Below the pieces are notes generated by a model. That model was given only the letters and a program-made list of their open reading frames with translations. It was not told where the DNA came from and made no database searches. From an uncultured delta proteobacterium (GTDB lineage: Bacteria; Desulfobacterota; Desulfobacteria; Desulfobacterales; SG8-13), in the NCBI GenBank assembly GCA_963825595.1, contig CAWGUE010000011.1, positions 25,267-89,266 on the forward strand: DNA of 64,000 nucleotides, written 5' to 3'. This document shows positions 5,348 through 32,373 of the stretch, piece after piece (within the stretch, counting starts at the first letter, position 1; every line of letters begins with the position of its first letter). Made by a program: the position numbers and the translations under genes.

Positions 5348-5625
5348 GATAGTCCTTGTAATAAGAGATCCCGCCATTTTTTCACAAACCACTCGAAAAC
5401 GGCAAACTACTTGAAAAAGTATTACGCAAAGCCGCTGGCCTAAGTCCCTGAGTAGATGGATATGGTAGCAGGGTTGCCGAGCAAAGACGTGCCATCTCTC
5501 GATGCACCTTTTTGTGCGGTGACGGTTTCATTGAGAGATGTCATGCAAGAAAATTCTATCTTCCATAGGCTAAGTAGCGGCCTGCTGTTGTCTTTCGATT
5601 GTTTTTATCATGCAGGTCGCGCGTT

Positions 5626-6309
5626 ATGCCGCTGAAGAAAATCAAGTCGATACGATGGGCTGATCGGATCTGGGCCGCCTTTAGCGCGCTTGTGCTGCTG
5701 CTGGCTGCAGATACGGCATTTGCTGCGCCTTGCGACATCCGACCTGCCGCCCCTGCCATCATCCGCCACGATCTGAGCACCAGTTACTGCGAGCTGTGCA
5801 GTTACGGCTACGTCACCATCGTCATAACCAATCCCTACGAGGGGGCGGATATGACGGGCATGACGGTGGTGGAGAATCTTGTTAATCCTGGACTGACCTT
5901 CCACAACGACCCTTCCGTGCCGGTAACCGTCAGCATCAACGGCGGCCCTGCCTGGCCTACCGGGGACCCGACCGTCATCGGTTCCACATTGACCTGGACA
6001 CCGAGTGAGATACCAGAGCTCGGTGGCCCTCTGGCGTATCGGCAGCCCTTGCCAAGCAGCTACCAGACCATCGCCATCACCTTCCCGGTGACGCGCCCTT
6101 CAGGCAACCAGGAGGGGCTGGTCGGCGCTGACCGCGATATCCAGGCACGACTCACTTACAGCACCGAAGACGCGACCGTTCCGCACGGCCTAATCCGCCA
6201 TGCCCTGGAAATCCCCAACGGTAACCACCTCGGTAGACGAACTGCCGCTGCGCGAACCGTTCCCTGCGGTATTCAAGAGGGGCCGCAATGTGGATGCGGG
6301 GCAGGATGA
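5626..6309 (+). CDS. Giant DUF11-repeat surface protein, N-terminal fragment with Sec signal peptide (frame 1; frame lost near 6195)
   Basis: MPLKKIKSIRWADRIWAAFSALVLLLAADTAFAAP looks like a signal peptide. The sense text stops making domain-like sequence after about 6195 and continues in frame 2 (TVTTSVDELPLREP...). Confidence 0.6.
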   Translation: MPLKKIKSIRWADRIWAAFSALVLLLAADTAFAAPCDIRPAAPAIIRHDLSTSYCELCSYGYVTIVITNPYEGADMTGMTVVENLVNPGLTFHNDPSVPVTVSINGGPAWPTGDPTVIGSTLTWTPSEIPELGGPLAYRQPLPSSYQTIAITFPVTRPSGNQEGLVGADRDIQARLTYSTEDATVPHGLIRHALEIPNGNHLGRRTAAARTVPCGIQEGPQCGCGAG

Positions 6310-7110
6310 AGGAGAGTACCGCCAGACCGTCTATGGCAACGTCAAGGACGATGTGATTTGGCGCATCCAGGTACAAAATGACGGCACGGCCAACCTGCAG
6401 GATCTGCGTCTGGACGACATGATGGAATCCGGTAATATCGACATCAACTACATCTGTCCGTCGATAGCCGCAGCCGACGAAATTGCTGACACCAACAATG
6501 GGTCGGTCCGTCGACCATGGGGTGCCTTTCCGCAGGTAACAGTATCAACAATTTCGATGTAGACTACCCCTTCGGCAATCCCGCAATACCTCTGCATGAC
6601 CCGGTGGATGTGCCCCAGGATGATACCCCGCATTCTCTACCTGGTGGGCAAGATCCCAGACGCATCGCCCAACGGGTCCTGTGAAACCGACCGAGAAGAC
6701 AACACCGTTTCCGACATCCAGTGGGGCTGTCAGTCCGAACCCACCCCGGCCGGCGGCATCGCCGCTACTTCGACAGGGCTAACACCGCCAGTGCCTCGGC
6801 CACCTTAAGCACCTTTCCGACGACCAATTTAACGATCCCACGTCAGAATTATCGGTTCGGAAGTAACCCTGTCACCGGTACCAAGGGCAGGGTCGAATCA
6901 CCATCACCAACAATACCGGCGGTACGGTCACAGAATCTCCAGACTTCAAAATGTATCTTCCTCCGGAGTATGTGATGGATTCCACGTTTACTCCGACGGT
7001 CAGCATGGACCCGGCGTACGGTTCCTACGATGGTATGATCGATCAAATCACATGGACCAATCCAGTTGCCGGTACCTTTCCGAATCAGTCGAGCAACAAT
7101 CCATACCGAT
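6194..7110 (+). pseudogene. Frame-scrambled segment of the giant adhesin gene (about six frame changes)
   Basis: Coherent adhesin-like text can only be followed by switching frames near 6195 (f1>f2), 6520 (f2>f1), 6635 (f1>f2), 6785 (f2>f1), 6888 (f1>f3) and 7105 (f3>f1). Examples are ...PVTGTKG|GRITITNNTGGTV... and ...NNPY|TDFLNNTEPRFTL... Confidence 0.55.
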
Positions 7111-9900
7111 TTTCTGAACAACACGGAGCCGCGCTTCACCTTGACCAGCAGCACCGCGCATCCTTTTTACCCGGCGCCGGATCAGGTCAATATGCTGCGT
7201 CACGGCGACGAACTGGAGATCACTTTCGGCATTATCCTGATCCGGCCGGAATCTTATGACAAAACGGCAGATCTCGATGTCCGCGAGGAAGATCCGAACA
7301 GCACCCCGGCGGACACCGATCCGGATAACGATATTTCACTGTCAAACCAACTGAACGTCACATTCGAAGATTTCTGTAACCCCGGAACGATTATCAATCG
7401 GACTTTCGACACAAACCATTCTCCAAATCCGGAGGACCTGGACATCGATATCATTGGTGATCCTCTGGTTTTCATCCTCACCAATGATCCGAGTCAGCGG
7501 TTGCCGCTGACCGTCGAACTGACCAACAACGGTGGCCATAGCGCGGCCGACTATGTCGCATACGTGAGCTTCGGAACGCACAATGGATGTGGTGGATCGG
7601 CCAACCAATTGCAACCCACCAGTAATCCGCCACCTCATGATGAGTGGCAGTTGCCGGTGCCGATTCCACCAAATGGAGCGGTCTTTGCCTGTACCGGTGG
7701 TGCGATATCAAGAAACGGTGGCCGGGTAAGATACGATTTTCAAGTGATAAAAAGTGCCGATCCAGCCGATATCATCGCCGATGACCTGTCATTCCGAGCC
7801 GATGTGATCGGTGAAATCACACTGAGTAACACAGATAGCCAGGGGAGGACTAACCTCTGGTTCCCAACACCCGTCAATCCGAGGGCAGACACGGGCATCG
7901 ATGATTACAACAATTACACACTCGACGGCCTTCGGGCCCGTGTGGTCGGATTCAACCTTCTCAAATCCCAGCTTGGAAACTGTACAGAAAACAACAATCC
8001 CCCACCACCACTGCCCGATCTGAATGTGCAGATCGGAGAGGAGTGCACCTATCACATCGAAACCGGTGGTTGGTTTGGCTTTAATACGCCGGGTTTTAAC
8101 ATCATCGCTGTGCAGGACATTCAGGTCGTTGACCAACTACCGAATGGCCAGGGCTACCTTTCGTCAACCAATCCGGCTTTGACCAGCACTTCAGAGATCA
8201 AGAGCATCAGTCTCAACCCGCCGGGGCTGTCACCGCTAGATGAAGGGGATTTCGACTGGACCTTTAACCGGGACGAGGTAAACGAGCGCATAAGGACCAT
8301 TGAAGAATGGTTCAAGGTCGACACAACTTCACGCCTGCTCAACGATCCCATCAACACAAGTGCCTTGCCGAACCGGCATGCAGAGCCCAGTACCAACGTG
8401 CTTGTGTCGTATTTTGATGCTGTTTTCCAGTCTGGAACCGATCCGGAAGAAGGTTATCGATTAGGACCCAGTACTGTGGGTTATCCCCGGGTAGAGGTGC
8501 GCCGTGTAGAACTCACTGTTACCGAGCCGCAGATCACAGTCGTCAAGGAAGTCTGTAACGAATCGTTGAACGGCGTGGGGCCCACGTGCAGTCCCTGGGA
8601 ACAGCTGGCCGACGACGGCGATGCCTACGACTCTTACATCTATCGCCTGACGCTGACCAACGAAGCCAGCAGCGGCGGCGTGCAGCGCGCTCCGGCTTAC
8701 GATGTCACCGTGACCGACCGGCTCGATACCAGCGATCTGGCTTATGTTCTGCCCTTTGACGCCGACGGCCTGGACAACGACGGCGATGGCGCCATCGACG
8801 AGGCCGACGAGGGCGTCATCAGCGATAACACTGTCCGGAACGGCACATCGGCAGTAATCACCTTCTCCCACACCCACAGCATCCCATTGCTGCGTATCAA
8901 TGCGGGCGATTCGGTGCAGCTTTACTACCGGGTCGATTTTGACGACGATGCCGCGCCCCTGCAGACCTTCACCAACACGGCCGTCGCCACCTACGACTCC
9001 CTGGAAGGGGCATTCGGCAACCAGACCGCGCCCCAGCTCGCCAACGGTGATTTGCCTGAAATCGGCGGCGCGCGGGTTTATACGTCACCCGCGGACTCGG
9101 CCGATGTGCGGGTCATTCCGGTGCAGACGCAACCCAAGCGGATTACTGATCTTTCCAATACACTCCTCGTTGGAGCGGGGAGCACCCAAGGCGTTTCCAT
9201 CGGCGAAGAGATCGAATACCGGCTCAACACGCTGCTGCCGGTAGCCTTGCTACGAAACTTTGTTATCCGCGATGAACTGCCCGCGGGCCTGCGCTGCAGC
9301 GAAGCCCCGGAGGTCAACCTGAACGCGCCGCCCTATTCGGCGGCAAATTTCGTGCCCGGCGGCACCTTTACCCCCACCTGTACAGACAACCTCGTTGAAT
9401 GGAATTTCGGTCATCAGCGCGTGACCAACGGCAGCATCGGCAACCGCTATGATTTCGAGATCGGGTTTATTGCCCGCGTCGAAAACACCATCGGGACCAA
9501 TGACGCCGATGTGCTTTCCAATGGGGACCCGGCCACCACCGCCACGGCGCGCTATATCGACGAAATCGGCAACCCGGTGGTGCTCACCTTCGGCCAGGTC
9601 GATGTCCTGGTGCGCGAACCGCGTATCGATCTCACCAAAGCCTTTGCCGTTGCCAATGCCGATGCCGGCGATATTCTCACGCTAACCGTAACGGCGACCA
9701 ACAGCGGCACGGCCACCGCATACAACCTGCGGGTGCTCGACGACCTGACCGGCCGCAACCTGACCTTCACGGGCACTGTGGGCGGCACCAACCCGCCGGA
9801 CACCATCGACACCACGACCCTGGGCGCCAACCGGCCGATCTTCAGCTGGAACCCACCTAACGGCATCGCCCCCGGCGAGTGCTATCAGTTTCACCTTTGA
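7066..9900 (+). CDS. Giant DUF11-repeat surface protein, central fragment (frame 1)
   Basis: 944-codon ORF with repeated modules of about 100 aa in the 'conserved repeat domain'/DUF11 style (GDILTLTVTATNSGTATAYNLRVLDDL). It has an acidic loop, DADGLDNDGDGAIDEADEG. It has no signal peptide or convincing start of its own, and it ends at a frame break at about 9877. Confidence 0.6.
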   Translation: MPVPFRISRATIHTDFLNNTEPRFTLTSSTAHPFYPAPDQVNMLRHGDELEITFGIILIRPESYDKTADLDVREEDPNSTPADTDPDNDISLSNQLNVTFEDFCNPGTIINRTFDTNHSPNPEDLDIDIIGDPLVFILTNDPSQRLPLTVELTNNGGHSAADYVAYVSFGTHNGCGGSANQLQPTSNPPPHDEWQLPVPIPPNGAVFACTGGAISRNGGRVRYDFQVIKSADPADIIADDLSFRADVIGEITLSNTDSQGRTNLWFPTPVNPRADTGIDDYNNYTLDGLRARVVGFNLLKSQLGNCTENNNPPPPLPDLNVQIGEECTYHIETGGWFGFNTPGFNIIAVQDIQVVDQLPNGQGYLSSTNPALTSTSEIKSISLNPPGLSPLDEGDFDWTFNRDEVNERIRTIEEWFKVDTTSRLLNDPINTSALPNRHAEPSTNVLVSYFDAVFQSGTDPEEGYRLGPSTVGYPRVEVRRVELTVTEPQITVVKEVCNESLNGVGPTCSPWEQLADDGDAYDSYIYRLTLTNEASSGGVQRAPAYDVTVTDRLDTSDLAYVLPFDADGLDNDGDGAIDEADEGVISDNTVRNGTSAVITFSHTHSIPLLRINAGDSVQLYYRVDFDDDAAPLQTFTNTAVATYDSLEGAFGNQTAPQLANGDLPEIGGARVYTSPADSADVRVIPVQTQPKRITDLSNTLLVGAGSTQGVSIGEEIEYRLNTLLPVALLRNFVIRDELPAGLRCSEAPEVNLNAPPYSAANFVPGGTFTPTCTDNLVEWNFGHQRVTNGSIGNRYDFEIGFIARVENTIGTNDADVLSNGDPATTATARYIDEIGNPVVLTFGQVDVLVREPRIDLTKAFAVANADAGDILTLTVTATNSGTATAYNLRVLDDLTGRNLTFTGTVGGTNPPDTIDTTTLGANRPIFSWNPPNGIAPGECYQFHL

Positions 9901-10036
9901 CGTCCGCGTCGATACCGCTGCGCAGCCCCTGGAAGTCCTGGACAATACCATCCAGGCGGATTGGACGTCACTGCCCGGTCAGACAACCGCGCTCAACAGC
10001 ACGGGGATAATCGGCGCTGACGGCAGCGAGGACGGC

Positions 10037-13000
10037 ATGCGCATCGGCGCCTTGCCCAACGCCGGTGATACGATAAACGACTACGAGACCGAAGCCAGCG
10101 ATTCTGCGACCGTCCCCCCGCTTATCCAGACCAAGACCGATCTGGACCCGGCCGTGATACCCACGATTGGGGCACACAAAAGCTTCCGTATCGACATCCG
10201 TCTGCCTGAAGGCACGACCCAGGACGTCCTTGTCACCGATAGCCTCAACAGCGCCGGTATCAGCTATTTTCTGGAGAACAACCCCGGCTACGACATCACC
10301 TACACCTTCCAGGGTATTGCCACCATCAACGGCGCGGTGCCGAATGAATCGGCCTTTACCGCCTTTCCGGTGGACAACACCAGCGGCAGCGCGGTGTGGA
10401 ATATCGGCACGGTGGTCACCCAGACCGAAAACGACCCGACCCAAAGCGCTATCGCGCCTCTTATCCGCATCGAGTATTTCGCCCGGGTAAACAATGACCT
10501 TGACACCGACAACGGCGATACCTTGCAGAATTCGGTGGTCGTGAATTACACCAACGGCGAGACCGGTGGGCAAGAAGCCTTGACGGATAACACGGCAGCC
10601 GTGACCGTGGTCGAACCTCTGATCAGTGCGACCAAAACGGTTATCAATGTCACGCCCGGCAAACTGCCTGCCGATCCGGCCGCCGGTGGCGATATTCTCG
10701 AATATGCCGTCGCCATTCTCAACAGCGGTACCGCCACCGCCATGGACGTCAATGTGGTGGATACCCTGCCGGCCGGGCTGCCGCTGTACACCAGTTTTAC
10801 CCCCACGGCGAGCATCGGCGGTTCGGCAGTGGTCGGTTTTGTTGCAACGCCGGACAATGCGCCGGCCGGCCCCCTTGTCTGGGGGCATGACAACGGTGAT
10901 GACAGCCTGGATATTCCCGTTGGTCAATCCCTGATCCTGACCTACCGTGTTGTGGTTCAGTCGCTGAGCGGTTCGTTCAGCAACAGTGTTTGGGTGGATT
11001 GGACCTCCCTTGATGGCGACAGCGGATACGAACGAACCGGTGAAGGTTGTCCCAGCTGGACTGCACCCAATGATTATTGCACGGGCGCGGTGGTCGCCAT
11101 CATCCCCACGGTGGATGACACCAGCATTGCCAAGGCCGTCACCGACGATACATATGATGTTCCGCCCCTCAGTACGGCAGTGGATGCCATTGCCCGTGTG
11201 GGCGATACCATCACCTATCGCCTGGCATTGGATCTGCGCGGCGGACTGATAAGCAACGTCCAGGTCCAGGATGTGCTGCCCACAGGCATGGCTTTTGTCG
11301 ATGTGGTCAGCATCAATGGCGATACCACTGCGGATTACACCTCGCCTGCCGGTGGACCGGGCTCCAATTTCGCCTATGCGCCGATACCTGCCGCCAATGT
11401 GCCTGCAGCCGGTCAAACCGGAACCCTGACCTGGACCATCGGCGACGTGGTCAACGATCCCTTCGGTGACCCAACCACCGATATCCTCGAAATCTATTAT
11501 CGCGCGACAATCCTGCCGGATGCCGGTATTGCCCACGTCGCTTCGACCACCCTGACCAATACGGCGACGCTGAGCTACACGGATGCGCCGGTCCTTACCG
11601 GTAATGCCGTTGCCACCGTGTACCAGCCGGTCATCGCTGCTGTCACCAAAACAGAACGCAACGGTCTCACCAGCCCGGCGACGGTGGATGTGGTCAACGA
11701 TACCATGCTTTTCCGGTTGGAGGCGTGCAACACCGGATCGGCGCCGGCCTACAGCATCGAGATGGCCGATCAACTGGCCACCCAATTAGATGAAACCAGC
11801 ATTGCCAATCTGGTGGTGTCTGCCAATGGGGCTGTTCTCAGCGCCGGTAGTGACTTCACTTACACGCCGCCGGCTGTTCGCGGCGGCACCCTGGATTTTC
11901 TGCTGACCACCCCGGTCAACCCCGGCGAGTGCCTCAGCATCGATTACGACATCGGATTTTATACCGATTTTGGTCCCAACCAGACCTGGAACAACAGCGT
12001 CAGCGTTGACAGCTACTGGTCGCTACCCGCCCAGTCCGGCCAGCGCTACGGACCGGTAGGGCCGGCGATCTTCGAAATGACCAATACGACGACCGTCGAA
12101 CCCCTGGAAAAAACCATTGTCACGCCAGTCTCCGCCCTGGCGGCCATCGGTGATCGGATCGTCTACCGGATCACCGTCCCCGTCACGCCGGTAAACGCGG
12201 CCCTGCACGACGTGCGCATCCTCGATGACCTGAGTGCTTCGGCTGCGGACCTAAGTTTCGTCAGTGTTGCAAAGGTCTCCGGCTCACAGCCGTGGACCCC
12301 GGTTAATACCGGCAGCGCCACCAACCTGGTGATCGAAGATACGACCACCGGCATCGACATTCCAGCCGGGGAACAGATCGTCCTCGATATAACGGTGGTG
12401 TTGGAGGATACACCGACGAACGTCAGTGGTCTGCAGTTCAGCAACACCGCCGATTATACCTTCAACACGGTCAACGACGATCCTGCGAGCCAGACGCCCG
12501 GTGGGTCGGACACGACCCCCGATATAACCATCATCGGCCCGGATGCGATCACACTGGATAAAACCGGTCCGGCGACCATGCAGGTGGGTACTCCCGCCGG
12601 CTTCACGCTGAATGTGCACAACCCGAGCACCGGCACTGCCTGGAACCCGACCATTACCGATCGGTTGCCCCATGGTGCGACCGGAGGTATGTGCGCCAGC
12701 GGGCCGAGCAATGTGACCGCGCAAATCATTTTGGCGGACGGGACGCCGGCGCCAGCGCCGCTCGTTGAGAACACCGATTATTCAGTGAGCTTCAGCGGAG
12801 AACCCTCCTGCGAATGGACCATCAGTCTTTTGTCAGCAGCCGGCGGACTGGCGCCCGGTCAGCGCCTGATCGTCGGTTACGACCTCGAACTGGATCTGTC
12901 GACCGAAAATGGAACCGTTCTGACAAATGTCGCCGGGGCCACGCAATGGTTCAGCGCCGATCCCGAAGCAGCGGGTGCCGCGCCGCGCACTTATGACCGC

Positions 13001-16000
13001 GAATTGACCGATGGCACGCCGGGCACCCTCGATCACGAGGATAGCCACACCGTTACTTGCGAAGCGCCGATCCTGGCGTTCATCAAGAGCGTGCAGAACG
13101 TGACCACCGGGCAGAACCCGGGCAGCAACGCCAGCCCCGGAGATACATTGCGCTACACCATCCAGCTCAGCAACTCCGGGCCCGTGGGAATAGCCTCTTT
13201 TTCCATCGTGGACGAGGTCGATCGTTTCAATGCCCCACCGGTTTTCGCCCCCGGCAGCCTGAGTCTGATCAGCGCTCCCGCGGGCGCCGACACCTCTGGC
13301 ACGAATGCCATGGGTGGCATCCACGGCACAGGCCTGCTGAATGTCGCCAATCTTGCCATCGGTGCTCAGGGTGACGCCAACGATACCATCGTGGTCGTAT
13401 TCGAGATCGCCCTGGCGCCGGCGATCACCCATGGGACCGTGGTGCTCAACCAGGCCGAACTCGTCTCCGCGAACCCCGATCGGCTTCAAAGCGATGATCC
13501 CAACGTGTCCGGTGACGCTGATCCCACAGAGACGCTGATCACTTCGGCGCCGGCTTTCGAGGTGCAGAAGATTTCCACCATCATGACCGGGGATCCCAAC
13601 GTTCTGATGGCCGGCGAAACCCTGCGTTACACCATCACCATTAAAAACATCGGTTCAGAGGATGCCGTCAACGCGCGTCTGCGGGACGATACCCCGGCCA
13701 ATACCACTTACGTGGCCAACAGCACGACTCTCAACGGTAATGCCGTACCCGACCCGAGCCCCGGCATCAATCCGTTGCATGCCGGCATCCTGATCAATGC
13801 ACCGGAAAACGTTACTGCCGGATATCTGCGCGCCGATACCGCACCGGGGGCAACCAATGTGGCCACGGTGACCTTCGACGTGGTGGTCGATCCGAGCGCC
13901 ATGAACGGTCTGATCATCGAGAACCAGGGATTCTTGGGCGCCAGTGGCGCGGGAAGCGGCCTGCAGCCCGAGCAGCCGTCAGATGATCCGGCCACGCCGA
14001 TTCCCGACGATCCAACCCGCAACGTGGTCGGCAACCTGCCGTTGCTTTATGCCCACAAGACCGTGCAGATCCAAGAAGATTTCGGCTCAGCGGGGATCGT
14101 CGATCCGGGTGACGTGCTGCGCTACACCATCGTCATCAGCAACTATGGCGCCATCCCGGCGACGGGAGTGACGCTCACTGACACCGTGCCCGCCAACACC
14201 AGCTATGAAGCCAACTCCCTGCGTCTGAACGGTGCGTCAGTAGGTCCCGATGGCGGTGTGTCGCCGCTGATCGCCGGCCTCACGGTGCATTCCTCCGACA
14301 ATCCGGGTGCCGGCATCATTTCTGCCGGTAGCAGCGCTGTGATCACTTTTGACGCCAGAGTCAATGCCGGCGTACCCACCGGCACCCTTATCAGTAACCA
14401 GGGCAGTCTTACTTCCAACGAACTGTCACCAGAACCGACCGATGCGGACGGACTGCCGTCCAACGGCTATCAGCCGACCGTCATCGTCGTCGGTGACGCA
14501 CAGCTGCTCTCAGTGACCAAGGAAGTGGCCATCGTGGGTGGCGGCGCTGCCACAGCGGGCGGCCAGTTGGCCTATACGATTCGGGTGACCAACATTGGCA
14601 CCTTACCCGCCACGCGCGTGATGGTGACCGACGATCTCAGCCCTCCGCTGGGCAATCAGGTGGCCTACATCCCCGGATCGGGCACGCTGAACGGCTCGGC
14701 GTCTGGGGTGACTTACGCAAGTTCGACCCTCACGGCGGACTATGCCGCCCAGTATGGAGATTTGCAACCCGGCAACAGTGCCGTCGTGCGCTTCCGCGTG
14801 CAGATCGACCCCGCACTGGCCATCGGGACAACCATCACCAATACCGGCGTCGTTCGCTGGAACGATCCGGCACAGACCGCATCGGCCAGCGTATCGCTTG
14901 ACCTGGGCGGTATACCGGGCAGCGGCATCTTCAACGGCAACGTTTGGCACGACGCCAACCTGGACAGGATATGCGACACCTCCACCGAGACATTGTTGGA
15001 GGGTTGGTCGGTGGTGCTCTATCGTAACAGTCAGTTGGTCACCACGGTGTTGACCGATGCCAGCGGTGCTTACCGACTCAGCGGCCTTGTCCCCAACGAG
15101 GGGACAACGGAACTTTATGAACTGCGCTTCCTTGCGGCGGGGGCAGGTCCGAACACGGCCTCGCTGGGTATGGCCGACTCGCCGTTCACCAATGGCCCGC
15201 AACGGATCAGCGCCATTACCGTAACGTCGGGCGGCTATCTGCAGAATCTGAATATGCCGCTCTGGCCCAACGGTGCCGCATACAACTCGGTTGCACGGGA
15301 ACCGGTGGCCGGAGTCCGACTCACGCTGCTGAATGCAGCCACCGGCACACCTTTGCCGAGCCAGTGCTTCGACGACCCGATTCAGCAGAATCAGGTCACG
15401 GCTCAGGACGGTTTCTACAAGTTCGACTTGAACTTCAGTGATGGGTCTTGTCCGGCAGGCGGCGCCTATCTCATCGAGGTCACACCACCGGCCACCGGTT
15501 ACATGCCCGCGCCGTCTGAAATCATCTCGCCCGCCAGTGACATGACCACCGCGGCATTTTCCGTTCCAACGTGCCCCGGAAGCGCTAACGATGCGGTGCC
15601 GGCCACTGGCGATTTCTGCGAGGTGACGACCTTTCCTGCAATACCGCCACTGTCGGTCCTGCCGGGTGCTGCCGGTACCACTTATTATCTTCACCTGGTG
15701 CTGAGCAACGGGAACCTGCCGGGTCACAGCCAGGTGTTCAACAACCCCATCCCCATCGATCCGGAACTGGGCGGAGCCGTGGCCATAACCAAGACCTCGT
15801 CCGCGGTCAACGTGGTTCGGGGGGAGTTGGTGCCTTACACGATCACCGTGTCCAATGTGTTCGGCGCGCCGCTTTACGACATCCGTATCGTCGACCGCCT
15901 ACCGGCCGGCTTCAAATACGTTGCCGGTTCGGCTCGCCTGGACGGTCAACCGGCCGAACCGCCCATCAACGGCCGGGAAGTGTTCTGGGATGATCTCGAC

Positions 16001-16768
16001 CTGCAAGTCAACCAGAGAAAAACCATCAAGTTCTTACTGGTGGTGGGTTCCGGCGTCACCGAAGGCGAATACGTCAACCGGGCGCAGGTGATCAACACCG
16101 CCACAGGAGATGCGGTTTCGGGGGAAGCGACCGCCACCGTGCGGGTCGTGCCCGATCCGGATTTCGACTGCACCGATTTCATCGGCAAGGTATTCGACGA
16201 CGGCAATCTGAACGGACGACAGGACACGGGCGAAAAAGGCTTGGTCGGTGTTCGCGTTGTGACGGTGCGCGGTTTGATCGCCACCACAGACGAACACGGA
16301 CGCTTTCACATCACCTGTGCGGCTGTGCCCGACGAGGATCGCGGCAGCAACGTCATCCTGAAGCTGGACGAGCGCAGCCTGCCGACCGGCTATCGCTTGA
16401 CCACCGAAAATCCGCGTGTTCAGCGGGCCACCCGCGGCAAGATGATCCGCTTCAACTTTGGCGCGACCATCCACCGCGTGGTCCGCATCGATATAGCCGG
16501 CGGCGTGTTCGAGCCCGATACCAGCGAACTGCGGCTGCAGTGGAAGCCCCGGCTTGTCCAGTTGCTGGAAGAGCTGAAGAAGGCGCCGTCCCTGCTGCGC
16601 TTGTCATACCTCGCCGATGTCGAACCGAAAGGCCTGGTTAATAAACGTCTGGCTGCATTGAAAAAGGAAATCACCAGGCAGTGGGAACGGTCGGATGGTG
16701 GCTATCGACTGACTGTTGAAACCGAAATTTTCTGGCGACGCGGTGCGCCGCTGACGAGCCGTCGATAA
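10037..16768 (+). CDS. Giant DUF11-repeat surface protein, C-terminal fragment (frame 2, open from about 9863)
   Basis: The frame-2 text upstream of the first ATG continues the domain cut at 9877 (GIAPGE|AISFTFDVRVDTAAQ). It has many DUF11-like modules (GDILEYAVAILNSGTATAMDVNVVDTLP, GDTLRYTIQLSNSG, GETLRYTITIKNIGSEDAVNARLRDDTP, GDVLRYTIVISNYGAIPATGVTLTDTVP). It also has two SdrD-B/Cna-B-like modules (GNVWHDANLDRICD.., IGKVFDDGNLNGRQDTGEKGLVGVRV). Confidence 0.7.
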   Translation: MRIGALPNAGDTINDYETEASDSATVPPLIQTKTDLDPAVIPTIGAHKSFRIDIRLPEGTTQDVLVTDSLNSAGISYFLENNPGYDITYTFQGIATINGAVPNESAFTAFPVDNTSGSAVWNIGTVVTQTENDPTQSAIAPLIRIEYFARVNNDLDTDNGDTLQNSVVVNYTNGETGGQEALTDNTAAVTVVEPLISATKTVINVTPGKLPADPAAGGDILEYAVAILNSGTATAMDVNVVDTLPAGLPLYTSFTPTASIGGSAVVGFVATPDNAPAGPLVWGHDNGDDSLDIPVGQSLILTYRVVVQSLSGSFSNSVWVDWTSLDGDSGYERTGEGCPSWTAPNDYCTGAVVAIIPTVDDTSIAKAVTDDTYDVPPLSTAVDAIARVGDTITYRLALDLRGGLISNVQVQDVLPTGMAFVDVVSINGDTTADYTSPAGGPGSNFAYAPIPAANVPAAGQTGTLTWTIGDVVNDPFGDPTTDILEIYYRATILPDAGIAHVASTTLTNTATLSYTDAPVLTGNAVATVYQPVIAAVTKTERNGLTSPATVDVVNDTMLFRLEACNTGSAPAYSIEMADQLATQLDETSIANLVVSANGAVLSAGSDFTYTPPAVRGGTLDFLLTTPVNPGECLSIDYDIGFYTDFGPNQTWNNSVSVDSYWSLPAQSGQRYGPVGPAIFEMTNTTTVEPLEKTIVTPVSALAAIGDRIVYRITVPVTPVNAALHDVRILDDLSASAADLSFVSVAKVSGSQPWTPVNTGSATNLVIEDTTTGIDIPAGEQIVLDITVVLEDTPTNVSGLQFSNTADYTFNTVNDDPASQTPGGSDTTPDITIIGPDAITLDKTGPATMQVGTPAGFTLNVHNPSTGTAWNPTITDRLPHGATGGMCASGPSNVTAQIILADGTPAPAPLVENTDYSVSFSGEPSCEWTISLLSAAGGLAPGQRLIVGYDLELDLSTENGTVLTNVAGATQWFSADPEAAGAAPRTYDRELTDGTPGTLDHEDSHTVTCEAPILAFIKSVQNVTTGQNPGSNASPGDTLRYTIQLSNSGPVGIASFSIVDEVDRFNAPPVFAPGSLSLISAPAGADTSGTNAMGGIHGTGLLNVANLAIGAQGDANDTIVVVFEIALAPAITHGTVVLNQAELVSANPDRLQSDDPNVSGDADPTETLITSAPAFEVQKISTIMTGDPNVLMAGETLRYTITIKNIGSEDAVNARLRDDTPANTTYVANSTTLNGNAVPDPSPGINPLHAGILINAPENVTAGYLRADTAPGATNVATVTFDVVVDPSAMNGLIIENQGFLGASGAGSGLQPEQPSDDPATPIPDDPTRNVVGNLPLLYAHKTVQIQEDFGSAGIVDPGDVLRYTIVISNYGAIPATGVTLTDTVPANTSYEANSLRLNGASVGPDGGVSPLIAGLTVHSSDNPGAGIISAGSSAVITFDARVNAGVPTGTLISNQGSLTSNELSPEPTDADGLPSNGYQPTVIVVGDAQLLSVTKEVAIVGGGAATAGGQLAYTIRVTNIGTLPATRVMVTDDLSPPLGNQVAYIPGSGTLNGSASGVTYASSTLTADYAAQYGDLQPGNSAVVRFRVQIDPALAIGTTITNTGVVRWNDPAQTASASVSLDLGGIPGSGIFNGNVWHDANLDRICDTSTETLLEGWSVVLYRNSQLVTTVLTDASGAYRLSGLVPNEGTTELYELRFLAAGAGPNTASLGMADSPFTNGPQRISAITVTSGGYLQNLNMPLWPNGAAYNSVAREPVAGVRLTLLNAATGTPLPSQCFDDPIQQNQVTAQDGFYKFDLNFSDGSCPAGGAYLIEVTPPATGYMPAPSEIISPASDMTTAAFSVPTCPGSANDAVPATGDFCEVTTFPAIPPLSVLPGAAGTTYYLHLVLSNGNLPGHSQVFNNPIPIDPELGGAVAITKTSSAVNVVRGELVPYTITVSNVFGAPLYDIRIVDRLPAGFKYVAGSARLDGQPAEPPINGREVFWDDLDLQVNQRKTIKFLLVVGSGVTEGEYVNRAQVINTATGDAVSGEATATVRVVPDPDFDCTDFIGKVFDDGNLNGRQDTGEKGLVGVRVVTVRGLIATTDEHGRFHITCAAVPDEDRGSNVILKLDERSLPTGYRLTTENPRVQRATRGKMIRFNFGATIHRVVRIDIAGGVFEPDTSELRLQWKPRLVQLLEELKKAPSLLRLSYLADVEPKGLVNKRLAALKKEITRQWERSDGGYRLTVETEIFWRRGAPLTSRR

Positions 16769-16772
16769 CGGA

Positions 16773-19700
16773 ATGATGGAAACCATGTCTCTTACCCCAA
16801 TCATGCTGATGCGATTCCTTGTGAAGCGCGGTATCGCCATTTTGTGTTTGTGTGCGGTCACCGCGGCCGTCGCAGAGGCTGATTTTTCAGGGGAAACCGG
16901 AGTGAGGGAGACCGCTTCGCGCGGAGCCACGTCCGAGATTCATCTGCCGGCCGACCAGCCCTTCACGCCTTGGATCCATGACCCGGCCATATTCGAAGAG
17001 AACGAGGGCGATCGCACGGAGATGGGCGAGACCATCGAACAGGATGCCAAAACGATCAAGGTCGATAACCTGGTTCCGTCGATCCATTTCGACCTGGGCG
17101 AAGCGGAGATTCCCGCGGACTACCTTGAGCGTCTTCGCGAGGTCCTCGACAGCATGCGCGATCGCCTCAACGTGCGACTCCACTTTATAGGTCATACCGA
17201 CAATCTGCCGCTCCGCGATGCCTTGCAAAAACGTTATGGCGACAACGTCGGGCTATCGCGCGAGCGGGCGGGCACCACTGCCGAATATTGCCAACGCGCC
17301 CTGAACCTTCCACCCGAAGCCATTTCCTACGAAGGGCGCGGCGACAGCCAGCCCGTTGCCGACAATGCAACCGAGGAAGGGCGTCAGCTCAACCGGCGTG
17401 TGGAAGTGCAGGTCTGGTACGATGAGATCGTTGAAAAGCTTGTCGAAACCGAAGTGATTGTCCCGCGTGAAGTGAGCCGCATCAAGGTCTGCCGGACCGA
17501 GACGGTTTGTAAGTTACGCTACAAGGAAGGCCATTCTCACCGCGCGCGCGTGAAGAATTTAATTACCCCGTTTCATTACGACGAAGGCATGGCGGATGTC
17601 CCCGAAACATTTCTGCGACAGGTCGGACATGCGTTGAACAACCTTCGCGCCAAACAGAATCTGGTCGTCAAATTCATCGCTTACACCGATAACATTCCGC
17701 TGAAAGCACGGGACGAGCGCATCTACGGCGACCACACTGGGCTTTCCAAAGCGGTTGCCCGTCGCATTTCACTTGCCGTTCAGGAAGACATGCAATTGCC
17801 CAATGCCGCCATAGAAAGCGAGGGCAGAGGTGCGTCACAACCGGTGGCCTCCAACGATACGCAGCAGGGCCGGGCGCTGAATCGGCGCGTGGAGGTGGAA
17901 TTCTGGCATGACGACCCCCTGCAGGATCTGCCCGATGAGCCCCAACTATGCCCGGACGCTGCCGGTGCCGAGACTGTCGTGCGAATTTACAACGCATCCT
18001 CGGGGCCTATCGATCCGATCCTGTTCGCGAACGGCCAACCGGTTGTGCCCGCCGGCTACACCGAGCATTTACAGCGCGTCATGGATGAGATCAGCGACAA
18101 GACCCATGTTCGATTGCGATTTGTCGGCTATACCGGCAACAAACGTCTGGATCGACGCACGGCGGCGGTTTACGGAGATGACATTGGCTTGTCCATTGCG
18201 CGCGCACGTCGTGCCATGGGGGCTGTCAGCAAGCAGATGGGGTTGACAGAGGGGCAGGCTGAATTCGACGGGCGCGGCTATGTCCAGTCCGATGACGTGG
18301 TGAACGCCGGTTTCATCGAATCCGATACCTCGCGTGTCCGGGTGCAGGTGGTCTACGATGAGCCTGTTCTGCTCGATGACTACGAGGGGGTCGAGATCAC
18401 ACCCATAACCCGCGAGGTAACCACGGCCGATCCTTTCGGGCTGAATCTCATGCGCATCACGGTCGACGGAAAGCCGCTCGACGATCCGGGTAAATGCAGC
18501 TCGGACGTGCAGCGCTGTACCGACGTGGCCCTTGAAAACGCTCAAATCCAATTCAAATACGACAGCTTGAAACCGGTACCGCGGTTGAACGTGACCGCTT
18601 GGCCGCGCACGATCCGCTACCAGGACAAAGAGGATACGGCATTTGCAGAAAACCTGGTGCGCTTCCGCCTGTATACCAACTACCGCAGCTTCATCGAGCG
18701 GGCGGAAGTTAGAATTTTCAGAGAGAAACAGTCCGTCCGCGATGTGCCCATCGCTGTCATTGCCATGGACGCTGACGGTATGGCCCAATGGCAGGCTGAG
18801 TTCGCGGTCTTCTCGGCGCCGGTGGAAAAGTTGCAATACCTGGTGCGGGTTTACGACAAGCAGGGATATTTTGACGAGACGAAGACCCAACCTCTGTGGG
18901 TGGTCGATCAGATCGACCCCTCGGCTGCCGAAGCGGATCCCGGTCAGGAACTGCTGGTTGGTTATGGCGAAAGTCGTATCGCCAGCCGTAACATCCCGCT
19001 CAGCGGCGGTACGGTGCAGGTATACGGCACCGCGATACCGCAAGGACACCGTGTCTGGCTGGCCGGTTATGCCGTACCCGTGGACAACACAGGCAGTTTC
19101 GTCGCTGAACAAATACTGCCGGGGGGGATTCATACCGTCGAGGTGGGTGTTCTGGACAATTTCGGCAACGGCGAGCTTTTCCTGCGCGACCTTGAACTGA
19201 AAAAAAGCGACTGGTTTACCGTGGGGATCGCCGACCTGACCGTATCCGGAAACAAGACCGATGGGCCGGCCGAATTGCTCGCGCCGGATACTCCCGAATA
19301 CAGTGAAGACATGAGCTTCGCCGGTCGACTGGCGTTTTACACAAATGGCCAATTCAAAAACGGCTGGTCACTGACGGCGAGCGCCGATACGCGCGAAGGA
19401 CCTCTGGACGAGATTTTCACCAACTTCATGGACAAGTCCCCCGAGGCCCTGTTTAGAAGGTTGGACACGGATGTCCACTACCCGACATTCGGCGATGACA
19501 GCACCGTCGTTGAAGATGCGCCGACCAAGGGCAAGTTTTACGTCAAAATGGAAAAAGATGAAACCTACGGGCTCTGGGGCAACTTCATGATCGGATACAA
19601 CGATAATGATCTGGTGCGGGTGGATCGCGGCCTGTACGGTGCCAATCTGCATTACCAGCCCCTTGGCATCACCGGTTTCGGCGAACCACGCCTCCTTTTG

Positions 19701-21887
19701 GACGGGTTTGCGGCGGATCCGGGCACCGTGGCCGGGCGCGATGAGTTTCTCGGAACGGGCGGGTCGCTTTATTTTCTAAAACGGCAGGACGTATTAATGG
19801 GATCCGAGCGGGTACGCATCGAAGTCCGCGACAAGGCTTCCGGGATTGTTCTGGAGGTCAAGAATCTGACGCCAGTCCTCGATTACGACATCGACTATCT
19901 GCAAGGACGAATCCTGCTGGCCCAACCCCTGTCAGCAACGGCAGACGACCGTCTGCTGGTGCGCAGTGACTCGATCAGCGGGAATCCGGCTTTTCTGGTG
20001 GTTCGTTATGAATTCACCCCCGGATTCGAAGAGCCGGACACGCTGGCGGTCGGCGGCAGGGTTCATTACTGGCTCAATGATTACATGAAGGTCGGTGTGA
20101 CCGCCAGCCGAGATGAAGAGGCGGACATCGAAAACAGGTTGGGCGGAGCGGATGTGACCCTGCGCAAGTCCGCGGAGTCTTGGCTCAGGCTGGAAGCCGG
20201 CAACAGCAAAGGGCCGGGAGTGCTATCGACGACCTCCGTTGACGGCGGTTTCGACTTTATTCCCGCAGATTCCTTCGGCGGTGTCGAGGCCGACGCGTCA
20301 GCCTATCGGGTCGATGCCAGTGTCGGCGTCAAGGATTTCTTCGACAATGGGCGCGGCCGTGTCACCCTTTACATGCAGGATCTGGGGGCGGGGTATTCGG
20401 CACCGGGCCTGGCCACTGCCCGGGATCTGACCCAATACGGCGGAACGGCGGCGCTACCTATTACCGACCGTTTAGGTGCTCAATTAAAGGTGGATATGCA
20501 AGTTCAGCGTGAGGGACTCGACACGCAGACCGGCGAGCTGGATCTTGATTACCGGATGGGTGAGCATTGGACTTTGAGTTCCGGTGTGCGTCATGACAAC
20601 CGCGAGGACAACTCGCCGGTCGTGCCGGAAACCCAGGAAGAGGGTGACCGCACGGATGCAGTGGCCCAGCTGCTGTACGATTCCCATAAACGCTGGACAA
20701 CCTATGGTTTCGCCCAGGGAACGATTCAGACCAGCGGCAATCGCGAGGACAACAACCGCATCGGTGCCGGTGGCAGTTGGCGTTTGACCGACCGGTTCAA
20801 CGTGGCCGGTGAGGTTTCCGGTGGAGATCTTGGCCCGGGTGGCCGGCTCGGGACCGAGTACCTGTATTCCGACCGGACCACGCTTTACAACAACTATACC
20901 CTCGAGAACGAACGCACCGATAATGGCCTGCGCGCCAGGAAGGGCAACTTGGCTTCCGGTTTTCGCACGCGATATTCCGACAGCGCCAGCGTCTACCTCG
21001 AAGAGCGCTATGTCCATGGCGATGTGCCCACCGGGCTGACGCATGCCACCGGTGTTGACCTCGCGCCGACCGATCGCCTTAATTTAGGCGCGAATCTCGA
21101 TTTCGGCACTCTCGTGGACCGACAGACCGCGGCCGAATTGGAGAGATTCGCATTGGGTGTGAGCGCCGGTTACGGGTTCGACAAGTTAAAGATCGCCAGC
21201 GCCCTGGAATATCTGGTCGAAAATACCGAGCAGCCGGATACCAGTTTTTCCAAACGCACCACCTGGTTGTTTAAAAACAGCTTAAAGTACCAACTGTCCG
21301 AAGACTGGCGCATCATCGGTAAATTCAATTATGCCGTGAGTGAGAGTTCGCTGGGAGAGTTCTTTGACGGCGATTACACCGAAGCGGTCCTGGGCTACGC
21401 GTATCGCCCCGTCCAGAATGACCGTCTGAATGCGCTCTTCAAATACACGTATTTCTACAATCTGCCGACCGCCGATCAGGTGGCCGGCACGGCTACTGGC
21501 GTCATTCAGCGCAGCCACATCGGTGCGGTGGATGTCATATACGATCTGACACCCCGCTGGACTGTGGGCGGCAAGTACGCCTACCGCCATGGTCAGGTGG
21601 CCCAGGATCGGGAAAATCCGGAGTTCTTCGACAGTCGTGCCCACCTGTATGTGCTCCGTGCGGACTGGCACTTCCTCCACCGCTGGGATGCGCTTTTCGA
21701 GTTGCGCCTACTCGATCTGCCGGATGCACAAGACAGCCGCAGCGGGGCGCTGGTGGGACTATACCGCCACCTTGGCAATCACATGAAGCTGGGGGTCGGC
21801 TATAACTTCAGTGATTTTTCGGATGATCTGACCCAAATGGATTACCGCCACCAGGGGCTGTTCATCAATGTGATCGGGAAGATGTAA
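16773..21887 (+). CDS. Giant outer-membrane protein: signal peptide, three tandem OmpA_C-like peptidoglycan-binding modules, long beta-rich C-terminal region (putative barrel)
   Basis: Three OmpA-type units are present: HFIGHTDNLPL..GLSRERA..GRGDSQPVADN..NRRVEVQVW; KFIAYTDNIPL..GLSKAVA..GRGASQPVASN..NRRVEVEFW; RFVGYTGNKRL..GLSIARA..GRGYVQSDD. The C-terminal ~700 aa has an alternating aromatic/Gly strand pattern (KLGVGYNFSDF, RWTVGGKYAYRHGQ). It starts 4 nt after the adhesin stop. Confidence 0.8.
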   Translation: MMETMSLTPIMLMRFLVKRGIAILCLCAVTAAVAEADFSGETGVRETASRGATSEIHLPADQPFTPWIHDPAIFEENEGDRTEMGETIEQDAKTIKVDNLVPSIHFDLGEAEIPADYLERLREVLDSMRDRLNVRLHFIGHTDNLPLRDALQKRYGDNVGLSRERAGTTAEYCQRALNLPPEAISYEGRGDSQPVADNATEEGRQLNRRVEVQVWYDEIVEKLVETEVIVPREVSRIKVCRTETVCKLRYKEGHSHRARVKNLITPFHYDEGMADVPETFLRQVGHALNNLRAKQNLVVKFIAYTDNIPLKARDERIYGDHTGLSKAVARRISLAVQEDMQLPNAAIESEGRGASQPVASNDTQQGRALNRRVEVEFWHDDPLQDLPDEPQLCPDAAGAETVVRIYNASSGPIDPILFANGQPVVPAGYTEHLQRVMDEISDKTHVRLRFVGYTGNKRLDRRTAAVYGDDIGLSIARARRAMGAVSKQMGLTEGQAEFDGRGYVQSDDVVNAGFIESDTSRVRVQVVYDEPVLLDDYEGVEITPITREVTTADPFGLNLMRITVDGKPLDDPGKCSSDVQRCTDVALENAQIQFKYDSLKPVPRLNVTAWPRTIRYQDKEDTAFAENLVRFRLYTNYRSFIERAEVRIFREKQSVRDVPIAVIAMDADGMAQWQAEFAVFSAPVEKLQYLVRVYDKQGYFDETKTQPLWVVDQIDPSAAEADPGQELLVGYGESRIASRNIPLSGGTVQVYGTAIPQGHRVWLAGYAVPVDNTGSFVAEQILPGGIHTVEVGVLDNFGNGELFLRDLELKKSDWFTVGIADLTVSGNKTDGPAELLAPDTPEYSEDMSFAGRLAFYTNGQFKNGWSLTASADTREGPLDEIFTNFMDKSPEALFRRLDTDVHYPTFGDDSTVVEDAPTKGKFYVKMEKDETYGLWGNFMIGYNDNDLVRVDRGLYGANLHYQPLGITGFGEPRLLLDGFAADPGTVAGRDEFLGTGGSLYFLKRQDVLMGSERVRIEVRDKASGIVLEVKNLTPVLDYDIDYLQGRILLAQPLSATADDRLLVRSDSISGNPAFLVVRYEFTPGFEEPDTLAVGGRVHYWLNDYMKVGVTASRDEEADIENRLGGADVTLRKSAESWLRLEAGNSKGPGVLSTTSVDGGFDFIPADSFGGVEADASAYRVDASVGVKDFFDNGRGRVTLYMQDLGAGYSAPGLATARDLTQYGGTAALPITDRLGAQLKVDMQVQREGLDTQTGELDLDYRMGEHWTLSSGVRHDNREDNSPVVPETQEEGDRTDAVAQLLYDSHKRWTTYGFAQGTIQTSGNREDNNRIGAGGSWRLTDRFNVAGEVSGGDLGPGGRLGTEYLYSDRTTLYNNYTLENERTDNGLRARKGNLASGFRTRYSDSASVYLEERYVHGDVPTGLTHATGVDLAPTDRLNLGANLDFGTLVDRQTAAELERFALGVSAGYGFDKLKIASALEYLVENTEQPDTSFSKRTTWLFKNSLKYQLSEDWRIIGKFNYAVSESSLGEFFDGDYTEAVLGYAYRPVQNDRLNALFKYTYFYNLPTADQVAGTATGVIQRSHIGAVDVIYDLTPRWTVGGKYAYRHGQVAQDRENPEFFDSRAHLYVLRADWHFLHRWDALFELRLLDLPDAQDSRSGALVGLYRHLGNHMKLGVGYNFSDFSDDLTQMDYRHQGLFINVIGKM

Positions 21888-22010
21888 TAACGTGAATATT
21901 GAACGAAAACTACAAACAGTTGTGAATCAGCCATGATGAAGAATGGTTATACAGTTTTTGGAAACAATGCTAACCGCTTGCGGTTTGAGCATTCGATCCT
22001 TCGGATGTCT

Positions 22011-22050
22011 TATTTAGTGCCCATCCGCGGTTTCATAAAGGGCACTGATA
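22011..22050 (+). repeat. Hairpin repeat module (agtgccc...gggcact) 3' of the OmpA-barrel gene
   Basis: tatttagtgcccatccgcggtttcataaagggcactgata recurs as a reverse complement at 44921-44957, 3' of an unrelated minus-strand gene. Both copies are in the sense orientation of the upstream gene. Confidence 0.6.
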
Positions 22051-22266
22051 AGTTTCCGATCCAGAAATGTGCAATTTTTCGCAAGTTCAAGGAAATCAAG
22101 GAATTGTGCGGAGGCATACTTCTGTATGCCGCACAAGCGATTTCGCCGATTGACGCCGAAATTGCGGAAAAGGGCCATTTATGGACGGAAACTAATTAAG
22201 ACACCGGAAACCCGACGCTTATTACGGGGATGACCTTTAATGACGAACCAAGGTGAGGAGGCCAAC

Positions 22267-32270: not shown

Positions 32271-32373
32271 GGTAGTGAACAGGATCATTGCAGGATATGA
32301 AAATTGAAGTTGTCGCTTTCGTAGCTCGAATGTCGAAATTCAAATTCCGGCGTTGCCGGCCCAGGAGGAAAAA

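Follow-up and report, generated by a model that had tools for sequence, protein, structure and literature searches.

A giant adhesin, a predicted giant outer-membrane barrel and an Agl-Glt-type motor cluster as a candidate surface-adhesion machine in an uncultured Desulfobacterota bacterium

Do a giant adhesin, the giant outer-membrane (OM) protein encoded directly behind it and a cluster of proton-driven motor genes on the same strand belong to one apparatus? This question is raised by a stretch of 64,000 nucleotides from an uncultured delta proteobacterium of the Desulfobacterales (GenBank assembly GCA_963825595.1, contig CAWGUE010000011.1, positions 25,267 to 89,266), which was analysed at its full length and is hereafter called the window. 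A preliminary description made from the sequence alone had suggested that the adhesin and the OM protein may be the cargo or output of the motor, by analogy with gliding machines. Sequence comparison indicates that the adhesin and the OM protein are one unit, the split form of a protein that is a single chain elsewhere, and that the pair stands beside the motor cluster in every informative relative. We favour, with a probability of about 0.6, a reading of the locus as one trans-envelope surface-adhesion machine that is controlled by cyclic di-GMP (c-di-GMP), in which a wall-anchored, barrel-threaded adhesin would be the output of the motor. The coordinates of all features are collected in Table 1.

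The OM protein is strongly conserved over 1,700 residues, with 74-91% identity over its full length in the best 120 clusters. The three OmpA-type modules ascribed to it earlier are recovered as three stretches by TIGR03350 and as two by PF00691. Domains 1 and 2 keep the peptidoglycan-binding motifs (GHTD/AYTD and NRRVEV), and domain 3 matches the family with GYTG and SRVRV in place of the conserved Asp/Arg motifs. The approximately 1,150 residues beyond the OmpA domains are without a family match. For this region a C-terminal barrel of about 700 amino acids had been proposed; structure prediction bears out the barrel and revises its extent to about 900 amino acids, preceded by a β-sandwich of about 240 amino acids. 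The AlphaFold 2 (AF2) model, built from an alignment of 52 sequences with 31-42% identity to the query, reached a mean predicted local distance difference test (pLDDT) score of 80.7 and a predicted template modelling (pTM) score of 0.77, and contains 44 strands of at least seven residues after residue 236, with short and long loops alternating. Moreover, the consensus of the family ends in GxFxNxxxKF, and hence in a terminal aromatic residue. The C-terminus of the OM protein is thus confidently predicted to form a very large β-barrel. When residues 560-1704 of the protein, comprising sandwich and barrel and referred to below as the module, were searched against 1.84 billion cluster representatives, 3,675 clusters were retrieved at E ≤ 0.001 and 1,086 at E ≤ 1e-30 (clusters at 50% identity). 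A Foldseek comparison with the PDB matched the barrel only to generic large OM barrels (Cir, MtrB, SprA, LptD, FimD, SlpA), with template modelling (TM) scores of 0.1-0.2. An identity of the OM protein as a component of a type I secretion system or a type IX secretion system (T9SS), an autotransporter, an usher or a TonB-dependent receptor was considered and rejected, there being no family match and a structural likeness that is generic.

The adhesin frame of about 11.1 kb had been described as carrying a signal peptide, DUF11 modules and two SdrD-B modules, all of which are present. The N-terminus is, by inspection, a Sec-type signal peptide, MPLKKIKSIRWADRIWAAFSALVLLLAADTAFA followed by AP. 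In the pieces of the adhesin, DUF11 (Pfam PF01345) was matched in 5+1 stretches (E = 2.4e-45), TIGR01451 in 7+1 stretches (E = 1.6e-68) and the isopeptide-forming pilin domain TIGR04226 in 2+2 stretches (E = 2.9e-38 and 2.2e-15), together with DUF7507, DUF7619 and DUF7927. With tandem DUF11-type domains behind a signal peptide, the protein has the architecture of the CLIPPER/DUF11 adhesins. The first of the two SdrD-B modules is a Pfam SdrD_B match at residues 1636-1702 of the 2243-amino-acid piece; the second is the conserved C-terminal one, the profile of which matches SdrD in the PDB (E = 1.7e-6). Acidic loops such as DADGLDNDGDGAIDEADEG are likewise present; their earlier assignment to a Ca-binding type meets a weak family match (E = 0.0028). 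The last 230 amino acids consist of the second SdrD-B-like domain, hereafter the junction domain, and a terminal domain of about 105 amino acids. The latter is predicted with a pLDDT of 85-94 and a β-α-β-α-β order, and it is a strongly conserved, confidently folded α/β domain according to the model. The suggestion that this tail is a degenerate OmpA unit was not confirmed: HMMER gave no OmpA match (E ~1), Foldseek returned nothing significant and no OmpA structure among its 50 best matches, and hhalign against the alignment of OmpA domains yielded a probability of 78% over 45 columns, by which an OmpA fold is not established.

The two genes are coupled far beyond the window. In the window, the stop codon of the adhesin is followed by cgga and then by ATGATGGAAACCATG, which leaves the gap of 4 nucleotides to ATG 16773 that had been noted before; most homologues of the OM protein start with MSLTP, corresponding to ATG 16785, in which case the gap is 16 nucleotides. 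In about 70 species from several phyla the two genes adjoin, and their stop and start codons usually overlap. Scanning one genome per species with an alignment of 14 sequences as the query yielded 566 relatives. The best 80 loci were examined, and wherever there is sequence upstream, the end of the adhesin, the OmpA region and the module follow directly on one another. From stop to start the distance is mostly -4, -1, +5 or +7 nucleotides, and two Nitrospirota loci carry the pair as a single open reading frame (ORF). Across Desulfobacterota, Nitrospirota, Acidobacteriota, Gammaproteobacteria and Gallionellales, the last 200 amino acids of the adhesin show 57-94% identity and are far better conserved than the repeats.

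Single-chain forms are frequent among the closest relatives of the module. Twenty-five of the 150 best representatives exceed 1,900 amino acids (up to 6,889), and sandwich and barrel are C-terminal in every one of them; nearly all have arrays of DUF11, DUF7507 or SdrD_B ahead of the module. Their recurring order is repeats, SdrD-B-like junction, in some an α/β domain, none to three OmpA domains, sandwich and barrel. The full order was seen in 22 of the 25 and the junction in 23, the exceptions being P0272, without a visible junction, and P0180 and P0220, which deviate in order. Three of these proteins (P0136, P0132 and P0133) correspond exactly to the two window genes joined end to end. The junction domain is the constant element ahead of the module in fused and split forms alike: phmmer finds it directly N-terminal to the module in the 23 fused giants and in the adhesin of locus L085 (E = 1e-30 to 1e-53). 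In L085, which lacks OmpA domains, the adhesin of 2,388 amino acids ends in the same two domains, junction and α/β, and overlaps a module protein of 1,180 amino acids by 4 nucleotides. It is the C-terminal position of the module in the giants, the recurring order, the adjacency and the stop-to-start spacing that argue for a single unit.

As a separate observation, the cultured strain Microbulbifer sediminum (NZ_JAJSAP010000001.1, ~347-377 kb; L028 and L029) carries two barrel modules in the same orientation, separated by 16 kb and each preceded by adhesin sequence, which amounts to a tandem duplication of the whole pair.

We then asked whether the pair is tied to the motor. Eighty-three loci were scored for motor linkage; in 48 of them the giant adhesin runs off the examined stretch, which leaves 35 informative loci from Desulfobacterota, Nitrospirota, Acidobacteriota and Gammaproteobacteria. 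Synteny in related genomes had been set beforehand as the test of the proposed connection, and it held in all 35 of these OmpA-bearing loci despite reordering and fusions, the motor cluster lying next to the pair either downstream or upstream. The downstream arrangement of the window was seen in 17 loci and the upstream arrangement in another 17. In 16 of the latter, the gene for the GltG-like transducer ends 35-1,057 nucleotides before the adhesin ORF, and less than 300 nucleotides before it in twelve. The run ExbB, ExbD, ExbD, GltG-like transducer, adhesin and OM protein is whole in the complete Woeseiaceae chromosome of L080 and in L078, and the same run is present with fragmented ORFs in L069. 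The remaining upstream case, L041, has the p179 and tetratricopeptide repeat (TPR) genes on the opposite strand, so that the cluster is divergent; pair and cluster share a strand in 34 of the 35 loci. Fusion of the pair does not disrupt the association, since in L087 and L088, two independent short-read assemblies, the complete cluster precedes a fused gene of 5,031 amino acids with three OmpA domains. Among members without OmpA domains (L084, L085/86, L089 and L090), no motor gene was found in the visible flanks, of which only those of L085 extend to 10 kb on both sides. Although the side without OmpA domains is thin at four cases, the pattern is clear, in that the motor accompanies the wall-binding OmpA domains.

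The identity of the cluster strengthens the comparison with gliding machines beyond the analogy drawn at first. Luciano et al. 2011 (PMC3169522) described an ancestral "core complex" of the Myxococcus gliding machinery, comprising GltC, GltD, GltE and GltG with AglR, AglQ and AglS; outside the myxobacteria, where they stated its function as unknown, it has one extra small gene. Table S3 of that study lists for Geobacter uraniireducens Gura_3077 (629 amino acids, GltC-like, homologue of MXAN_2541), Gura_3076 (1,108 amino acids, GltD-like, homologue of MXAN_4870), Gura_3075 (240 amino acids, GltE-like, homologue of MXAN_4869), the ExbB Gura_3073 (211 amino acids), the ExbD proteins Gura_3072 and Gura_3071 (166 amino acids each) and the GltG-like Gura_3070 (484 amino acids); Gura_3074 is unlisted. 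The window cluster matches Gura_3077 to Gura_3070 in gene sizes and order, and p95 is probably the additional gene. One ExbB/TolQ-like gene and two ExbD/TolR-like genes are present, the products of which are predicted to form a proton-driven stator unit. The GltG-like transducer consists of a cytoplasmic coiled coil, one transmembrane helix, a Pro/Lys-rich linker and an AgmX/PglI C-terminal domain. It matches NF033768 with 58.9 bits against a cut-off of 40 (E = 3.9e-16), and NF033760 at the domain level only (E = 8e-16, 57.7 bits versus 650). The 1067-amino-acid TPR lipoprotein contains CpoB/YbgF-like and BamD-like repeats. By size, order and the AgmX/PglI domain, the cluster would correspond gene for gene to the Agl-Glt core complex. 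An NCBIfam scan of the cluster proteins gave no match to GltC, GltD or GltE, and Pfam and NCBIfam scans gave no family of GltA, B, H, K, F, I or J or of CglB, GltJ being matched only through the shared C-terminal domain. The distance of about 380 nucleotides from the OM gene to the cluster given previously is close to that of p179, which starts 353 nucleotides after it; the first ExbB gene lies 7.2 kb downstream, past three TPR genes. A counterpart of p179 with 180 amino acids stands at the head of the cluster in L087.

Upstream of the adhesin, a c-di-GMP-I riboswitch was identified with 73 bits against a gathering threshold of 35, the full model being matched. L003 (9849-9939), L002 (1205-1281, a GGC variant) and L009 likewise have riboswitches of this clan ahead of the adhesin, with two in tandem in L009. 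The riboswitch fits an attachment function, tying the system to the transition between a free-living and an attached way of life, and it suggests that transcription starts upstream of the adhesin. The gap between the OM gene and p179 contains about 300 nucleotides of AT-richer DNA (21888-22190) that are missing from the closest long relative, L001, the corresponding gap of which measures 65 nucleotides. No gene or Rfam family was found in this segment, which could hold an internal promoter. Folding of the leader RNA gave no clear expression platform, and scans of the locus for promoters and terminators were uninformative.

Taken together, these data can be combined into a working model. In the favoured reading, the barrel would be both the passage of the adhesin fibre through the OM and its socket. 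The N-terminal stalk would stand outside and the chain would thread the wide lumen of the barrel, which at such a size could admit folded immunoglobulin-like modules, and the two C-terminal domains of the adhesin would remain in the periplasm beside the OmpA domains, by which the assembly would be fixed to peptidoglycan. The reason for this topology lies in the fused forms: they place periplasmic OmpA domains between adhesin and barrel, so that the C-terminus of the adhesin should be periplasmic, and with the fibre outside the chain should traverse the barrel. With the TPR lipoproteins as a scaffold, the ExbB/ExbD stator would, together with the GltG-like transducer, bring proton-motive force to the periplasmic face of the platform. 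The force might drive or gate the threading and exposure of the fibre, much as the Glt OM platform unmasks CglB, or it might load and release the wall anchorage, as Tol acts on Pal. High c-di-GMP would switch expression through the leader riboswitch. The preliminary description had made the synteny and the barrel its tests and had mentioned frame breaks in the adhesin; the unity of split and fused forms, the tie between OmpA domains and motor and the riboswitch had escaped it.

Several points weigh against this model. Sequence is the basis for the proposed topology, the surface exposure and the motor's role alike, and that the adhesin is cargo or output of the motor is likewise something that we infer. 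That the barrel is a single one, that it has about 40 strands and whether it holds a plug are estimates at most from the model, and it is by size and order that the TPR proteins are likened to GltC, GltD and GltE. In 48 of the 83 loci, all those of cultured Microbulbifer among them, the examined sequence did not extend to the upstream side of the adhesin. Moreover, the pairs that lack both OmpA domains and a visible motor imply that a motor is not a general requirement of the barrel family for handling its adhesin, which weakens the variant in which the motor powers export. Finally, the adhesin gene is not intact in the present assembly.

This last point requires closer attention. From ATG 5626 to TAA 16768 the adhesin frame measures 11,143 nucleotides, or 3,714 codons, and its open stretches switch from frame f1 to f2, f0, f1 and f2. 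The first runs to ~6.2 kb, the second to ~6.8 kb, the third covers ~6.87-7.25 kb, the fourth extends to 9.87 kb and the last to the end of the gene. The four shifts, near 6.2, 6.8, 7.1 and 9.873 kb, are all +1. There is at least one in-frame stop, at 6560; the stops at 6973 and 7036 fall within the bypassed frame. All breaks lie within the first 4.3 kb of the gene. Only a fragment of 227 amino acids (P0121, 100% identical) is annotated in the deposited assembly, which shows that the breaks are contained in the deposited assembly itself. It is conceivable that the adhesin is a decaying pseudogene here and that the machine is non-functional or works without a fibre, and the adhesin of the second relative L003, which has the same upstream genes, is likewise broken, into three pieces. 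However, the breaks in L003 are at other positions, and L001, with 88% DNA identity, encodes an intact orthologue of 3,745 amino acids. Comparison of window positions 8,473-21,886 with L001 reveals five gaps of one nucleotide. Four of them compensate each other in pairs, and the remaining one is the frameshift at 9873, where a run reads CCCCC here versus CCC in L001 and the window has an extra C. Except for one nucleotide, the 3′ 8.3 kb of the adhesin gene is gap-free or compensated in the alignment to L001, at 88% identity. The N-terminal third (window 5626-9900) shares 67% protein identity with L001 and the remainder 89%, and the breaks are concentrated in this most variable part, where consensus errors are to be expected. 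No further broken gene was noticed among the window ORFs examined. The sequences of the closest relatives, which bear contig_N names, stem from long-read metagenome assemblies, and frame errors of this kind are common in such assemblies. The uniform +1 shifts, the homopolymer context and the non-conserved positions of the breaks thus make assembly errors more likely than decay, and of the alternatives that we weighed the pseudogene survives best, though as an unlikely one. Programmed frameshifting was rejected as the cause of the breaks, since L001 is intact, L003 is broken elsewhere and the resolved case is a homopolymer difference. In addition, the divergence of the N-terminal part, inside which every frame break falls, is as expected for a variable binding tip.

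A second alternative concerns the direction of transport. The barrel could be an import channel, with the adhesin capturing a substrate that is insoluble or polymeric, and its uptake through the large pore energised by the TonB-like motor as in a TonB-dependent transporter. The best Foldseek matches do include TonB-dependent transporters, but with TM-scores of merely 0.13-0.15, and Pfam and NCBIfam scans gave no TonB-dependent receptor or plug family. The cluster does contain ExbB/ExbD and a TonB-like transducer, and for a homologous ExbBD/TonB cluster of Fibrobacter the import of cellodextrins was proposed by its authors; nevertheless, a barrel that many lineages fuse in frame to the end of adhesins has the build of an anchor or translocator and not of an importer, and pairs without OmpA domains occur without a visible motor. 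We regard import as improbable. Least of all do we expect the cluster to be a Tol-Pal-like envelope-maintenance system that merely neighbours the pair, as the CpoB/YbgF-like repeats and the motor-less pairs might be taken to mean, because same-strand adjacency persists across four phyla or classes although the pair has switched cluster ends, family scans found no TolB or Pal among the cluster proteins, and the OmpA domains of the barrel protein track the presence of the motor.

Table 1. Positions of the features of the adhesion locus in the window
Feature	Position	Strand	Evidence or remarks
c-di-GMP-I riboswitch aptamer	5391-5481	+	Rfam RF01051; ~145 nucleotides before the adhesin start codon
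Giant fibrillar adhesin gene	5626-16768	+	ORF and stop-codon maps; ATG 5626 to TAA 16768
SdrD-B-like junction domain, two conserved cysteines	16076-16450	+	Alignment over 28 species; PDB profile match SdrD B
Adhesin C-terminal α/β domain, ~105 amino acids	16451-16765	+	AF2 model
OM protein, 1704 amino acids (1700 from ATG 16785)	16773-21887	+	Signal peptide, three OmpA-like domains, β-sandwich, barrel
OmpA-like domain 1	17082-17429	+	Residues 104-219
OmpA-like domain 2	17568-17921	+	Residues 266-383
OmpA-like domain 3	18015-18365	+	Residues 415-531
β-sandwich ahead of barrel	18450-19169	+	AF2 model, residues ~30-235; kept with the barrel throughout the family
Predicted OM β-barrel, ~40 strands	19170-21884	+	AF2 model
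p179, secreted protein	22240-22779	+	Without family match; conserved between OM gene and first TPR gene
TPR protein, 629 amino acids, GltC-like by size and position	22790-24679	+	Pfam TPR
TPR lipoprotein, 1067 amino acids, GltD-like by size and position	24676-27879	+	TIGR02795, E = 6e-32; LSAC lipobox
Small TPR lipoprotein, ~231 amino acids, GltE-like by size and position	27951-28646	+	Comparison with Gura_3075
p95, small secreted protein, 95 amino acids	28735-29022	+	Position conserved in L001, L002, L087
ExbB/TolQ-like gene	29143-29799 (29125-29799 in the comparison with the second copy)	+	PF01618, E = 1e-24
ExbD/TolR-like genes, two	29796-30287, 30284-30778	+	PF02472, E = 2e-12 and 4e-13
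GltG-like TonB/TolA-type transducer, 493 amino acids	30789-32270	+	NF033768, NF033760
Second ExbB	32374-33087 (32353-33087 in the comparison with the first copy)	+	Closes the cluster; protein 88% identical to first ExbB

The second ExbB looks like a recent duplicate, its C-terminal two-thirds being nearly identical to the first. Outside the system, unrelated genes flank it before 5.4 kb (ATP sulfurylase) and beyond 33.1 kb (Lar genes). Right after the cluster, positions 34322-37361 (+) contain three genes with PP-loop/NAD-synthase, AIR-carboxylase and nickel-insertion (PF01969) domains, presumably the LarE/LarB/LarC set for the nickel-pincer cofactor. They are followed at 38851-40101 (+) by a gene for a protein with MopE-type Cu-binding motifs and a CAP (cysteine-rich secretory protein) domain, and tRNA genes are found at 40258-40331 (-) and 43046-43120 (+). 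Two tRNA genes also lie directly downstream of the pair in L085 (13922-14143).

If the reading of one adhesion machine is correct, the locus and its relatives provide the core complex with a concrete output, namely a giant adhesin that sits in a barrel anchored to the wall, and suggest a role for this widespread complex in non-gliding bacteria. The barrel family, with at least 1,086 clusters at 50% identity (E < 1e-30), is predicted to exceed the largest solved OM barrel, and its repeated fusion to fibrillar adhesins points to an undescribed route for very large folded fibres onto Gram-negative surfaces. More tentatively, and somewhat short of even odds in our estimate, the ~40-strand barrel and its welded CLIPPER adhesin may represent an unrecognised pathway of OM secretion or anchoring, a giant-pore analogue of autotransport that at least five phyla encode, either as one chain or in two coupled genes. 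The Agl-Glt core complex would then be the proton-driven engine of its wall-anchored version, and the gliding and spore-coat machines of myxobacteria would have evolved from an adhesin-deployment machine. Genetic analysis is feasible, since related loci were found in cultured Microbulbifer and the gene table of PMC3169522 places the motor cluster in Geobacter, Marinobacter, Saccharophagus and Teredinibacter.

How does the locus compare with known systems? In the literature searched, we found no description of a giant barrel welded to fibrillar adhesins or of the pair as a partner of the core complex, and nothing on the locus tags adjoining the core complexes of Geobacter, Saccharophagus and Marinobacter. 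With the Agl-Glt machinery of Myxococcus xanthus (PMC3169522), the window shares a TolQ-like gene accompanied by two TolR-like ones, a GltG-type transducer that ends in the AgmX/PglI domain, and, as the likely output, an OM platform with a surface adhesin. Judged by sizes and order, it probably also has counterparts of the three periplasmic or OM TPR proteins and of the small extra gene, presumably in one operon with the others. In contrast to Myxococcus, it lacks the small barrels GltA, B, H and K, the vWA adhesin CglB and GltF, I and J; its output is a CLIPPER fibre of ~3,700 amino acids with a ~40-strand barrel, and three OmpA domains would fix it to peptidoglycan. Gliding is not implied for the window system.

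The fused forms resemble type V secretion (Va, Vb) in having an N-terminal passenger adhesin and a C-terminal OM barrel, and the split forms in having adjacent, coupled adhesin and barrel genes, with Sec export to the periplasm in either case. However, the barrel is predicted to have ~40 strands as opposed to 12 or 16, PF03797, POTRA and two-partner secretion (TPS) domains were not found in the window pair by Pfam and NCBIfam, periplasmic OmpA domains lie between passenger and barrel, and one clade is linked to a proton-driven motor. The T9SS and its associated gliding machinery (SprA/Sov, GldLM/PorLM, SprB) likewise combine a very large single-chain OM barrel and a giant repetitive adhesin with a proton-driven motor of the 5:2 type and with TPR and OmpA-like accessory proteins (PorW, PorE). 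Unlike these systems, which occur in different phyla, the window is without matches to the C-terminal sorting domain, PorK, PorN and PorV; the similarity to SprA is generic (Foldseek TM 0.14-0.19), and the sole T9SS-type match is a weak PorW-like TPR with 40.7 bits versus 250. Type I secreted adhesins of the LapA/SiiE type differ from the window adhesin by its Sec-type N-terminus, and no gene for an ABC transporter, a membrane-fusion protein or TolC was found in the 64-kb window. The earlier statement that no type I secretion, autotransporter or T9SS family is evident thus applies to the whole window.

The barrel of the window may belong to the very large barrels predicted by Solan et al. 2021 (PMC8346858), who described OM barrel families of 38 and 40 strands without function or genomic context. 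These, too, are single-chain barrels with more strands than the 36 of SprA, which is still termed the largest known barrel. In Fibrobacter succinogenes, FSU_2396-2403 encode an OmpA protein, two TPR proteins, ExbB, two ExbD and a TonB-like protein in the gene order seen in the window downstream of the adhesin; the genes are induced on cellulose, and adhesion proteins (fibro-slime) were recovered in a complex with the OmpA and TPR proteins. In contrast to the window, no DUF11 adhesin is reported alongside, and FSU_2396, with only ~56 kDa, was rejected as an orthologue of the 1,704-amino-acid OM protein. The CLIPPER/DUF11 adhesins (PMC12617251), for example that of Acinetobacter silvestris, share with the window a signal peptide, a tandem DUF11-type stalk and OmpA-like wall anchorage at the C-terminal end. 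No barrel partner or motor was described for them, whereas in the window the OmpA domains reside on the partner protein, or after the junction in fused forms, and lead into a giant barrel. The known parts are hence the Glt core complex, to which no function had been assigned, and the CLIPPER-type fibre; what would be new is the assembly that combines them with a giant barrel.

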